In this document: in pieces, positions 32,861 through 35,886 of the stretch | Numbering within the stretch: the stretch's first letter is position 1 | Layout of the letters: every line of letters starts with the position of its first letter | From: Flavobacteriales bacterium | Lineage (GTDB): Bacteria > Bacteroidota > Bacteroidia > Palsa-965 | Assembly (NCBI GenBank): GCA_040377305.1 | Contig: JBEIPA010000006.1 | Span: 128,001-192,000 of the forward strand | Length of the DNA: 64,000 bases | Reading direction: 5' to 3' | The notes under the pieces: model-generated | What the model was told of the DNA's origin: nothing | Seen by the model: only the letters and a program-made list of their open reading frames with translations | Database searches by the model: none | Program-made: the position numbers and the translations under genes

Positions 32861-33658
32861 TTACTGTTTGATTTCAACGCCATTCACAAACACGCGAACG
32901 ATTACCAGTTCTCCCCATCGGTTGTAAATGGTTTCTGTTCCGTGTCTTTGATCGTTGTGAAATTCGGTGACGCAGAACAGTTCTCCTGAATCGTAATACT
33001 GTTTGTCAACACCTTCTTTCTTATTATCCGCATAATTCGTTTCACGGACGAGAATTCCTTTGTCGTTCCATTCTTTCGTCACTCCTGTTCTGTAGTCTTC
33101 CAGAAAACTCGTTTCGCGTCGCACGCTTCCATTGTCGTAGTAGTCCAGTTCTTTTCCCGTGCGACGATCGTTTCGGCAAGTGGTCACTGAAAGAATGGCT
33201 CCGTCATTATCGTATGTGATCACAGCACCATTCACTTTTCCGTTGACAAAAGGTTTCACTTGCATAAGCTCACCCGTCTCATAGTACAGTTTCGCGGTGC
33301 CCACCGGCATTCCGTGTTCGAATTGGGTTTCCTGTAAAAGCGCTCCGTTCTCGTAATACACGCGCTGAATTCCATTGCGCATTCCGTTAGAGAAAGTGTC
33401 TACGCCCAACAATTCGCCATTCTCATGAAATGATTTTTGAACGCCGTTGATTTGTCCGTGATTATAAAATGTTTCTTCCCGCAACTGTCCGTTTTCGTAG
33501 TAGCAGCTTTCAACACCATGCATCTTCCCATCTACAAACGGTGTTGCACACGCAAGTTGTCCATTGTCGTAGTAGTTCTTCCTGATCGTGTCTTGTCCGA
33601 AACAAATTGCACTCACACTAAGTGCAGATAGCAGAAAGTTGAAGCGTGGCTTTTTCAT
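32861..33658 (-). CDS. MORN2-repeat (YwqK-like) exported protein
   Basis: Repeated YYENGQL..E..F..G...G units. ATG at 33658 is followed by a signal peptide. Confidence 0.85.
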   Translation of the reverse strand: MKKPRFNFLLSALSVSAICFGQDTIRKNYYDNGQLACATPFVDGKMHGVESCYYENGQLREETFYNHGQINGVQKSFHENGELLGVDTFSNGMRNGIQRVYYENGALLQETQFEHGMPVGTAKLYYETGELMQVKPFVNGKVNGAVITYDNDGAILSVTTCRNDRRTGKELDYYDNGSVRRETSFLEDYRTGVTKEWNDKGILVRETNYADNKKEGVDKQYYDSGELFCVTEFHNDQRHGTETIYNRWGELVIVRVFVNGVEIKQ

Positions 33659-33782
33659 ACAGCGGTTTTGCAAAATTGGGTTGCATGATTTGAGCCAAAG
33701 GCAACTACGTGAAACCAATTACTACGAAATGGGGAGCGGAAAAGCCGTAAATTCGCAGTCCGTTAGGTCCCGTAGTTCAATG

Positions 33783-34148
33783 CCCGCCCGGCCGAACGGT
33801 GACGAAAGAATGGCCCTGTAGTTCAATGGATAGAACGAAAGTTTCCTAAACTTTAAATCCAGGTTCGATTCCTGGTGGGGCTACAAATTTTTATTTGATG
33901 GCGTACTATGTTTATGTCGTGAGGAGCTTACACAAGGACTACGTTTATAAAGGACACTGCGAAGATTTAAGTAAACGGATTGAAGAACACAATTCTGGTA
34001 TGACGAAATCTTTGCGGCCTTTCATTCCAGTTGAATTGGCCTACTTCGAAAAATTTGATCTACTGAAAGAGGCGATCGCTCGTGAAAAGTATCTGAAGAC
34101 GTCTGCTGGCAGAAGATTTCTAAAGCCTAAATTGGCCGTTCGGACGGG
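33783..34148 (+). mobile_element. Inverted-repeat-bounded insertion in the tRNA D-loop carrying tRNA-Arg and a GIY-YIG nuclease
   Basis: Left end CCCG-CCCGGCCGAACGG, right end CCGTTCGGACGGG (12 of 13 complementary). Precise removal restores a canonical tRNA. Confidence 0.7.
33812..33883 (+). tRNA. tRNA-Arg(CCT), intact inner copy
   Basis: GGCCCTG-TA-GTTC-AATGGATA-GAAC-G-AAAGT-TTCCTAA-ACTTT-AAAT-CCAGG-TTCGATT-CCTGG-TGGGGCT-A forms a full cloverleaf with anticodon CCT and three G-U pairs in the acceptor stem. Confidence 0.92.
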
Positions 34149-34158
34149 GATAGAATAG
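33898..34158 (+). CDS. Stand-alone GIY-YIG nuclease (UPF0213/SLX1-like)
   Basis: YYVYVVRS..YVYKGHCEDL..RI.EHN.G...EAIAREKYLK..GR; stop codon lies inside the outer tRNA 3' half. Confidence 0.9.
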   Translation: MAYYVYVVRSLHKDYVYKGHCEDLSKRIEEHNSGMTKSLRPFIPVELAYFEKFDLLKEAIAREKYLKTSAGRRFLKPKLAVRTGIE

Positions 34159-34205
34159 AAGTTTCCTAAACTTTTGATACAGGTTCGATTCCCGTCGGGA
34201 CTACA

Positions 34206-34233
34206 GAAGGCTGCTTAGGCAGCCTTTATTTTT
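34206..34233 (+). terminator. Intrinsic terminator after the tRNA
   Basis: AAGGCTGC-TTAG-GCAGCCTT followed by TATTTTT. Confidence 0.85.
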
Positions 34234-34236
34234 GTA

Positions 34237-34356
34237 GACGGGAATCGGTTCGCTGCGCGAAAATCAGACGCTAAAAATGTCCACAGGACATTTTCTTTAC
34301 GCGTCTTCTCCCGTCGGGACTACAGAAGAAAAAGCGTCTCATATTGATGCGCTTTT
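34237..34356. repeat. tRNA-linked repeat: inverted T-arm copy, central hairpin, direct copy of the tRNA 3' end and a second hairpin
   Basis: GACGGGAATCG is the reverse complement of CGATTCCCGTC; AAAATGTCC-ACA-GGACATTTT hairpin; CCCGTCGGGACTACAGAAG repeated at about 34310-34328. Confidence 0.75.
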
Positions 34357-34396
34357 GTTATTTTGTACTAACGTGTCCCCAATAGCACATATAAAA

Positions 34397-35146
34397 TTGA
34401 ACCTCCGTTTCGCGATCGGCGTTGTTGTCCTTTGCCTGCTCCATGCCTGCTCTTCGTCACATGTACCGGAACGTACAAATGGATATATTGAAACAGATAG
34501 TTGCAGTATTTATTACGAATCAATCGGATGCGGTACTCCGATCATTGTTCTACATGGACTTGGTTTTGATCACACGTATTTCAGTCCGCACCTTGATACA
34601 TTGGCGTACAACTACCGTTTGATCTTCATCGACATGCGCGGGTCTGGAAAATCAATCGACAGTTCCCTCATTTCTTTACAGCAGGTTACATTGGATATTG
34701 AAGCTGTGAGGAAATCGCTTGGACTGGATTCGTTTGTATTGATGGGACATTCACTTGGCGGACTTGTGGCTATGAAATACGCAACTCTGTTTCCTGAAAA
34801 ACTAAGCGCGATGATTCTCGTTGCTCCCAATGCAGCCATCGCCAAACCGGATTCCATGGTTTCTCCGGCACCAGCAAAATCAAAAGGTAAACTCAAAGCC
34901 AACAATCCTCATTACGACAAGTCTTTTGAATCTTATAATCTCCTGCCTGAACTCTCGAAGGTTAGTACAGCAACTTTATTAATAAGTGCAGAACGAGATC
35001 CTATACCAGCCAGCGTTCATGTTCAGATAGCATCGACTATGAAAAACTGTACCCACATTACAGTAAAAAATTCCGGACATTTTGTTTTTGCTGATCAACC
35101 TGCTGAATTTTGTTTGGAGGTAAATAATTTTAGCCAAAACAAGTAA
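34397..35146 (+). CDS. Alpha/beta hydrolase, probable lipoprotein
   Basis: VLHGLG, DMRGSGKS, GHSLGG nucleophile elbow, SGHF; LHAC lipobox. Start uncertain (TTG at 34397 preferred). Confidence 0.8.
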   Translation: MNLRFAIGVVVLCLLHACSSSHVPERTNGYIETDSCSIYYESIGCGTPIIVLHGLGFDHTYFSPHLDTLAYNYRLIFIDMRGSGKSIDSSLISLQQVTLDIEAVRKSLGLDSFVLMGHSLGGLVAMKYATLFPEKLSAMILVAPNAAIAKPDSMVSPAPAKSKGKLKANNPHYDKSFESYNLLPELSKVSTATLLISAERDPIPASVHVQIASTMKNCTHITVKNSGHFVFADQPAEFCLEVNNFSQNK

Positions 35147-35177
35147 GAGGGTCATGTTTTAAGCAAATCTGACAGTA

Positions 35178-35237
35178 ACAGGTTCGATATTTGTCCGCTT
35201 GGGACTACAGAAGGCTGCTTAAGCAGCCTTTATTTTT
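35178..35237 (+). repeat. Degenerate direct repeat of the tRNA 3' end plus terminator
   Basis: ACAGGTTCGAT...GGGACTACAGAAGGCTGCTTAAGCAGCCTTTATTTTT matches 34179-34233. Confidence 0.85.
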
Positions 35238-35886
35238 ATTGCGCAATCCCATTCTTCACTGCATACATCACCAATCCCGCGATATTCCGCACACCAACTT
35301 TTTCCATGATTCCGGATCGTAAGCCTTCCACCGTTCTGGCACTGAGAAATACCTTTTCTCCTATCTCCGCAGAGGTATACTCCTGGCAGATCAACTGCAG
35401 AATTTTCGTTTCCCGCTCATCCAATTCGACTACTGGTTTGAAGCTCGGTGCTGCGATATTTTTACTCATGATATTTTTCAGCATGGTGCTGCTCACCATA
35501 TCGTTGAAATAATAATTTGTTTCAACTACGCCGTAAATTGCTTTTTTGATTTCGGATGGATCCGCGTTCTTGAGTAAGTATCCGTTTGCACCGGCTTCCA
35601 GCATGTGGAGAATCATGTGTTCTTCATCGTGCATGGTGAGAATCAGAATTTTTACGTTCGGATAGTTCGCACGGATTTCTTTAGTTGCTGCGAGGCCATC
35701 CATTACCGGCATTTTAAGATCCAGCAAAATAACATCCGCTTCATTTCCTTTCAAGATCTGCAGAAGTTCTTCGCCATGTTCGGCTTCAGCTACGAAATGT
35801 AGCCCGGGATCGTCGCTGAGGACAAGACGTAATCCTTCACGAAATATTTTGTGATCGTCGGCTATGATAAATCGGATAGTTGCCAT
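35236..35886 (-). CDS. NarL/FixJ family response regulator
   Basis: ADDHKIFREG, DLKMPVMDG, GYLLK, LSARTVEG. Confidence 0.93.
   Translation of the reverse strand: MATIRFIIADDHKIFREGLRLVLSDDPGLHFVAEAEHGEELLQILKGNEADVILLDLKMPVMDGLAATKEIRANYPNVKILILTMHDEEHMILHMLEAGANGYLLKNADPSEIKKAIYGVVETNYYFNDMVSSTMLKNIMSKNIAAPSFKPVVELDERETKILQLICQEYTSAEIGEKVFLSARTVEGLRSGIMEKVGVRNIAGLVMYAVKNGIAQ

Follow-up and report, generated by a model that had tools for sequence, protein, structure and literature searches.

How a tRNA gene could come to hold, within its own D-loop, a second tRNA gene with the same anticodon together with a nuclease gene is the question raised by a locus in the 64,000-nt stretch of DNA analyzed here, which we refer to as the window. 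The initial annotation of this DNA interpreted the locus as a possible minimal homing-type selfish element that cuts or invades a tRNA gene and brings its host a substitute. Our analyses indicated that the locus is real and is a rare nested form of a widespread tRNA-parasitic nuclease cassette, for which cutting and mobility are predicted from sequence. In the following, G-labels denote genomes (G000 being that of the window) and L-labels denote loci.

The interrupted tRNA gene and its insert

The elements of the locus, all on the forward strand, are arranged as follows.

33766..33782, +, outer tRNA-Arg(CCT) 5' half, positions 1-17, ending at the first D-loop G; the joined gene equals the G010 and G018 genes
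33783..33798, +, left palindrome arm made up of four NNYG tetramers and abutting the junction; this arm type also occurs on contig C28 and in stand-alone palindromes
33799..33811, +, 13-nt spacer, which may derive from the loop of an older palindrome or from flanking DNA of the donor
33811..33815, +, TGGCC, first of two copies of a 5-bp direct repeat that bounds a 322-bp tRNA and nuclease unit
33812..33884, +, inner tRNA-Arg(CCT), intact
33898..34158, +, gene for an 86-aa single-domain GIY-YIG nuclease of the YKGHC clade, with Y6, Y17, G19, R27, H31 and E63 present
34133..34148, +, right arm of the palindrome, four CRNN-type tetramers with one change, flush with the junction and starting with the second TGGCC
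34149..34204, +, outer tRNA-Arg(CCT) 3' part, positions 18-73
34206..34234, +, intrinsic-terminator-like hairpin and T run 3' of the outer gene (consensus match only)

The description of a tRNA-Arg(CCT) split in its D-loop around a 366-bp insert (33783-34148) proved right in its coordinates. The two outer halves rejoined, without target duplication, into a 73-nt gene that ARAGORN called as tRNA-Arg(cct), and over 72 nt the joined gene matched its intact counterparts in the same-genus genomes G010 and G018 without a single mismatch, while those of G003 and G013 each showed 1 mismatch. Based on these matches, the split is not a chance resemblance and the outer halves represent the native allele. 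The outer gene also owns the upstream flank and the terminator-like hairpin. A sigma-70 scan of the locus identified no promoter, and a near match to the Bacteroidota -7 box is present at 33748-33755.

The inner gene was likewise called as tRNA-Arg(cct) by ARAGORN and scored 64.9 bits against the Rfam tRNA family. As had been claimed, it is an intact but diverged gene with the same anticodon, differing from the outer gene at 12 of 73 positions; to the gene of G028, a genome from another family of the same class, it had 1 mismatch. ARAGORN identified 52 tRNA genes in the assembly, and no other of these was an intact Arg(CCT). At this site the inner allele appears imported and the idea of a substitute tRNA being brought in held up. 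A tRNA-Arg(TCT) can also read AGG, and compensation by the inner tRNA may not be essential because the genome has a tRNA-Arg(TCT) as well.

Inverted repeats do bound the insert; their extent was misjudged, the arms being imperfect terminal inverted repeats of 16 nt each, flush with both junctions, rather than a 13-nt pair lying 4 nt inside. As an RNA duplex the arms would pair with -18.7 kcal/mol. The claim that the nuclease ORF lies wholly within the insert failed, as the ORF passes through the right arm and has its stop codon inside the outer tRNA 3' part, leaving the insert with no stop codon of its own. The TGGCC copies at 33811 and 34133, 322 bp apart, enclose the tRNA and nuclease segment. 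In agreement with the annotation, no integrase or transposase was found in the insert, where the GIY-YIG gene is the sole ORF, and an Rfam search over 33600-35300 (E<=5) matched no group I, group II or other intron or ribozyme family.

Three neighboring ORFs that we scanned encode a MORN-repeat protein, a hydrolase and a LuxR regulator, with no integrase among them. The hydrolase gene lies between a 20-bp repeat of the tRNA 3' end at 34309-34328 (within 34235-34333) and, at 35180-35240, the remains of a tRNA 3' end that has the same terminator; repeats related to these are arrayed in tandem in G014 (L008). The tRNA-3'-end repeats around the hydrolase gene suggest repeated integration at tRNA-Arg.

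Sequencing reads gave partial support to the assembled structure, as no independent run extended 31 letters to either side of a junction. Run X1, which may be the source sample, tiled the locus without differences: one contig ran from the left flank through the insert to 34163 at a depth of 16.3, and the right flank had a depth of 16.2. Run X2, an independent run from another study, matched 33300-33808 with one indel at a depth of 3-4, the nuclease gene being outside its coverage. Of the two junctions that the annotation proposed checking against reads, the left one is crossed by X2 by 26 letters, short of formal bridging, and the right one by X1 with under 31 letters on one side. Against a collapse of tandem tRNA-nuclease repeats during assembly stand the unbroken X1 contig at the depth of the right flank, the left junction in X2 and the 12 sites that separate the inner from the outer tRNA. 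The stronger case for a real locus is the recurrence of the nested layout in unrelated assemblies, described below, and we consider an assembly artefact highly improbable.

The nuclease and its relatives beside tRNA genes

The 86-aa ORF is a GIY-YIG protein, as annotated (PF01541, E 1.8e-11). The residues Y6, Y17, G19, R27, H31 and E63, which we take to have catalytic roles in GIY-YIG enzymes, were conserved in a 31-row alignment; the sites mutated in SsnA are Y6, Y17 and E64 (PMC11893778). The predicted fold had a mean pLDDT of 88, and a fold search placed structures of UPF0213, Slx1 and At-HIGLE at ranks 1-13, a single one of its matches reaching E<=0.001. The nearest folds, UPF0213 and Slx1, ranked above UvrC and I-TevI, and there were weak sequence matches to 1ywl and 1zg2. 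By sequence and modeled fold, the nuclease is a catalytically intact-looking, Slx1-like (UPF0213) single-domain GIY-YIG protein. Stand-alone Slx1-like proteins form a prokaryotic GIY-YIG family, and the Slx1 lineage cuts branched DNA (PMC1564403). The 86 residues make up one domain, with no C-terminal DNA-binding module (NUMOD or similar). Based on this lack of a separate DNA-binding domain, and by analogy with the Ssn nucleases (PMC11893778), it is reasonable to suppose that the protein may recognize a folded single strand. Searches with the nuclease matched no NCBIfam family and, in the ESM Atlas, unnamed GIY-YIG clusters only.

Relatives of the nuclease are common, with profile matches in 108 of 401 sampled genomes of the class. 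Our census comprised 135 distinct nuclease loci from protein and profile searches, among the matches listed and including 80 further fetched regions, and 113 of these 135 listed loci had an intact tRNA gene on the same strand within 350 nt. This distribution agrees with the proposal of a selfish nuclease cassette of tRNA genes. Extra broken tRNA pieces were present in 109 of the 113 tRNA-adjoining loci, as a raw count taken without a shuffled control. A CCYG-type palindrome was found at 54 of the 135 listed loci, compared to 5 of 2000 random G000 windows scanned with a slightly stricter pattern. The two dominant layouts were mirror images of one another, a broken 5' part, nuclease and intact tRNA (28 loci) and an intact tRNA, nuclease and broken 3' part (32 loci); the looser order of 5' piece, intact tRNA, nuclease and 3' piece was seen at 13 of the 113. 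Most relatives are tandem forms, consisting of an intact tRNA, a nuclease and a palindrome-broken copy, and tandem arrays reach 12 nuclease copies.

The longest array is the 12-repeat L208 (G512:C2:364427-369132), and L129 (G488) is a 5-repeat array. The genome of the window has a further GIY-YIG gene at a contig end (G000:C21:1-450, L233), between a tRNA 3' part and a repeated 3' part with a T-loop palindrome. In addition, it has 15 tRNA genes on one strand at G000:C7:88552-97060, with second copies of several types, a cluster that may be an acquired tRNA array.

Nuclease lineage followed tRNA type; the annotation had proposed a related check, of the cargo anticodon against the target anticodon. 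On a tree from a quick search (108 proteins, 76 columns, many open forks; 27 loci with no nearby tRNA or a short or broken match were omitted), the tRNA label required 16 changes, compared to a mean of 61.6 when shuffled (0/200). The clade of the window's protein (13 members from 10 host families, SH-aLRT 97) sits only at tRNA-Arg genes, CCT in 10 cases and CCG in 3. Based on these sequences the nuclease clades track tRNA type, although clustering of this kind demonstrates neither that the two co-evolved nor which way transfer ran. Among 13 other YKGHC loci, 5 have an ORF whose stop codon falls at positions 8-10 of the following tRNA copy; the ORF of L070 ends in TTG GCC CTG TAG. The window ORF retains the TTG GCC start of a tRNA copy and then switches into the right arm.

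A foreign substitute tRNA is not supported as a general rule: in most of the close relatives checked, the intact tRNA by the nuclease is identical in sequence to the broken copies and is thus a duplicate. For the same reason we rejected the notion that the neighboring intact tRNA is, as a rule, an immune replacement allele.

None of 38 candidates from a protein scan of viral contigs was confirmed. All 17 viral matches to the junction pattern were without a tRNA or nuclease and were dropped, as they look like chance. A literature search covering the main texts of largely open-access papers gave no account of the cassette, nor any of five palindrome strings. The cassette is widespread and apparently undescribed.

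Recurrence of the nested form and its palindromes

Searching for the outer 5' half followed by the left arm and an intact D-arm identified 6 loci in GTDB genomes and 9 in metagenomes, and the nested form, for which the annotation had proposed a search, was found again among them. Four of the nine metagenome loci (L055, L056, L058 and L060) have the exact order of the window, with a broken nuclease ORF 46% identical to that of the window. These four are 99.3-100% identical to one another and thus represent one organism, and at 46% identity their nuclease is not a close copy of ours. In L034, one of the six GTDB loci (a Chitinophagaceae bin), the arms enclose an intact tRNA-Arg within a split one, without a nuclease. 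The outer copy has decayed in both lineages, through a changed D-arm, a second insert and the broken ORF in L055 and through a changed anticodon loop in L034. L059 and L061 are intermediate, having a 5' half with the left arm, an intact tRNA, a nuclease and a complete palindrome-broken copy; the other eight of the 15 loci are tandem or arm-only forms. The left junction alone had 17 occurrences, spread over 11 of the 401 genomes of the class (none for a reversed control), and only the one in the window is nested. In L203 the order is palindrome, tRNA, nuclease, palindrome, and the outer pieces join exactly at 15|16.

A strict test for nesting, by unpaired arms whose removal rejoins a tRNA, identified at least 1 of the 135 census loci among the matches listed, this being the window itself; the count is a lower bound because the test missed L055 and L034. 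Other unpaired matches to this test were dropped, as the arm motif lay within the tRNA's own 3' stem or the flanking motifs were there by chance. Inverted-repeat-bounded nesting is accordingly an exception and not the general layout.

A second nested unit was found in the same genome at G000:C28:36139-36252 (L232, L238). Here near-identical arms, with the same junction motif as in the window (CAATG|GWTAG), interrupt a small non-tRNA hairpin-plus-terminator and enclose a diverged intact copy of the hairpin with its own terminator, without nuclease or tRNA. The corresponding site in G015 (G015:C132:3837-3937, L250) is uninterrupted and has the same flanking genes (85%, 81% and 37% protein identity), making C28 and G015 the only true filled and empty pair obtained. 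Nesting is thus not limited to tRNAs. The C28 hairpin matched no Rfam family and is possibly an unknown small RNA. Its outer stem varies among three copies, yet pairing is kept.

The strict nested form is rare, being found in one other lineage with a nuclease, in one without and at one non-tRNA site in G000. Judged from these sequences, nesting around a copy of the target arose at least four times (the window, the L055 group, L034 and C28). For the window's own site, no syntenic form of the empty allele that the annotation asked for was found in relatives: genes related to the MORN gene were distant (29-35%) in 35 family genomes, and none of the loci fetched from other genomes shared the four neighbors tested around the site.

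Stand-alone palindromes that insert without cargo make up a family to which the arms of the window also belong; the tetramers of this family are NNYG in the left arm and CRNN in the right. Among 43 clean palindrome insertions in relatives, all without target duplication, 24 were in loops, 16 at loop edges and 3 in stems, compared to 44% stem junctions in the background; the 43 represent 27 distinct site types and are not independent, and the test counted clean insertions only. Palindromes have reused the same D-loop position across families. Palindromes with these ends also occur apart from tRNAs and nucleases, with 16 matches of up to 116 nt in G000, compared to 2 and 6 in two controls, and 0 of 12 long-arm matches outside G000 enclosed a nuclease or target copy. 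Palindrome lengths were multiples of 4 in 20 of 41 distinct lengths and 4n+2 in only 2, and in long palindromes the inner tetramer pairs follow a parallel rather than a nested order.

Origin of the nested locus and comparison to known systems

Taking these observations together, we give a probability of about 55% to the following reading: a native tRNA-Arg(CCT) gene was split by a palindrome that now encloses a foreign-looking tRNA and a nuclease, likely as the product of a selfish cassette with predicted tRNA-gene cutting and repair copying. The nuclease would cut folded, probably single-stranded, tRNA-gene DNA near a loop, and repair would copy the cassette in and duplicate the tRNA, with the palindrome staying in the displaced copy. 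One 322-bp TGGCC-bounded unit from another lineage, a single repeat of a tandem cassette, would then have recombined through the short TGGCC match into a palindrome in the native D-loop, in a single event or via an intermediate like L059 and L061. The inner tRNA would be processed from a read-through transcript and do the work, the outer halves being a pseudogene. Once formed, the locus could spread as a unit, with its outer halves serving as homology for repair, and the foreign tRNA would thereby stay within native halves. In favor of this reading are the proximity of the nucleases to intact tRNAs, broken pieces and palindromes, the tracking of tRNA type by nuclease clades, the ORFs that end in the next tRNA copy (5 of 13), the L059/L061 intermediate, the 13 loci with the looser order, the loop bias of insertions, the decay of outer copies in other nested cases and the intact catalytic residues with their Slx1-like fold. 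Counting against it, the intact neighbors usually equal the broken copies, so that self-protection from cutting lacks an account; TGGCC at both joints partly follows from the tRNA start and the arm sequence; no direct repeat as clean is present in L055 or L034; the C28 unit, whose arms surround a target copy but neither a nuclease nor a tRNA, fits only as action in trans; and the window's own site has no syntenic empty allele.

In an alternative reading, the 16-nt arms would be true mobile ends and the 366-bp insert an autonomous minimal element (arm, cargo, nuclease, arm), with short palindromes as deleted derivatives and each unit carrying an intact copy of the structured RNA gene that it breaks. 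The flush arms without target duplication, the same nesting in the L055 group around a 46% identical nuclease and in L034 around none, the outer pieces of L203 and the C28 unit with its syntenic empty site in G015 are as such a reading would have them. Strict nesting was, however, detected at no fewer than 1 of the 135 loci, in the window only and by a test that missed two known positives; none of the 12 long-arm matches outside G000 has cargo; the ORF stop lies outside the arms; and GIY-YIG enzymes are hydrolytic nucleases for which we know of no strand-joining activity. We therefore do not take this as the leading reading and consider it possible but unlikely. Equally tentative is the wider proposal of a new minimal class of mobile element, in which a nuclease of about 80 residues, Slx1-like, would cut the loops of structured RNA genes in folded single-stranded DNA, with tetramer-armed palindromes as ends, no target duplication and a foreign intact copy inside, whether tRNA or not (the last point from two cases in G000, the window and C28). 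If true, RNA gene alleles would be swapped between lineages without integrase, transposase or intron. That palindromes and nucleases are two independent parasites, the former moved by another enzyme into any hairpin loop and surviving only in spare tRNA copies, the latter arriving separately with its tRNA and nested by a recombination accident, is suggested by the palindromes away from both tRNAs and nucleases in G000 and by the 81 of 135 listed nuclease loci without a CCYG-type palindrome, the only type counted. The enrichment of palindromes by the nuclease, the D-loop position reused across families and the four or more occurrences of nesting with a target copy make such independence rather improbable. 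Finally, the unmutated state of the outer gene relative to G010 and G018 and the pairing of its arms could mean that the RNA loses or tolerates the insert, as with an intron or a split tRNA, and that the outer gene still gives tRNA. Given that no Rfam ribozyme family matched, that outer copies have decayed in L055 and L034 and that nearly every broken copy adjoins an intact one, we see very little prospect of this.

With the cassette reading preferred, the locus points to a likely job for the many 80-residue GIY-YIG proteins of Bacteroidota that lack annotation and to a way of parasitizing tRNA genes without intron or integrase. A whole tRNA allele has apparently moved from one family to another. 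Provided that each clade cuts the tRNA type it accompanies, the nucleases would be a source of very small site- or structure-specific nucleases. The window is a good test case, as 440 bases of it contain the native allele as target, the diverged inner one and the two arms, and the same genome has a second nested site with an empty allele.

By the features tested, the system is outside classical homing endonucleases, Ssn systems, insertion sequences, introns and integrase islands. Integrative elements at tRNA genes keep the tRNA working by duplication, a trait common to both; the insert of the window carries no integrase, its junction is in the D-loop, and what is duplicated may be a 5' part, a 3' part or the whole gene. 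Insertion sequences and MITEs share terminal inverted repeats with the window, which has neither a transposase nor a target-site duplication. REP/RAYT and IS200/IS605-type hairpin elements have short palindromes, no target duplication and one small linked enzyme; unlike theirs, the window's enzyme is not a HUH tyrosine transposase, and its palindrome copies are low in number (the 16 matches in G000). Both types of element are mentioned in the Ssn report (PMC11893778).

A closer parallel is provided by the mORFs of fungal mitochondria, in Allomyces macrogynus atp6 and Glomus atp6, atp9, cox2 and nad3, where an endonuclease ORF also lies inside a gene along with a foreign copy of the displaced part, and close relatives resemble the displaced native part more than the inserted one (PMC3630166). 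The window has the same signature, with 0 mismatches between outer and same-genus genes, and in the inner gene 12 differences from the outer one and 1 mismatch to the gene of another family. It differs in its bacterial host, tRNA target, replacement of a whole gene, 86-aa Slx1-like domain and palindrome arms bounding the insert. SegB of phages T4 and T6 is a free-standing GIY-YIG homing endonuclease by tRNA genes that cuts inside them, drives inheritance of the region and can yield tandem tRNA and nuclease repeats, as many census loci show (PMC2330249, PMC13096335). SegB is, however, a phage enzyme with a C-terminal NUMOD3, and as described in these sources its wild-type locus has no tRNA split or duplicated around itself, whereas the window protein is a bare Slx1-lineage domain of which our two viral scans found none. 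Classical homing endonucleases (SegB, I-TevI) in general have a C-terminal DNA-binding module that the window's protein lacks.

The Ssn proteins are ssDNA nucleases associated with SRM/NTS hairpins, for which a repeat-gene-repeat layout was proposed to be mobile, and they share with the window a single small GIY-YIG domain tied to hairpin repeats (PMC11893778). The main text of that report mentions neither tRNA nor the string Bacteroid-, and the window's repeats, unlike those associated with Ssn in the report, insert inside tRNA loops. The published SRM pattern matched 0 of the 135 census loci among the matches listed and nothing within 500 nt of the window's gene; the pattern is not fully sensitive because it also missed an Ssn-looking gene on contig C56 of G000. 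That gene (G000:C56:71525-71716), with no SRM pattern match beside it, is a longer GIY-YIG gene with a likely start frameshift and a C-terminal extension that resembles the Ssn type.
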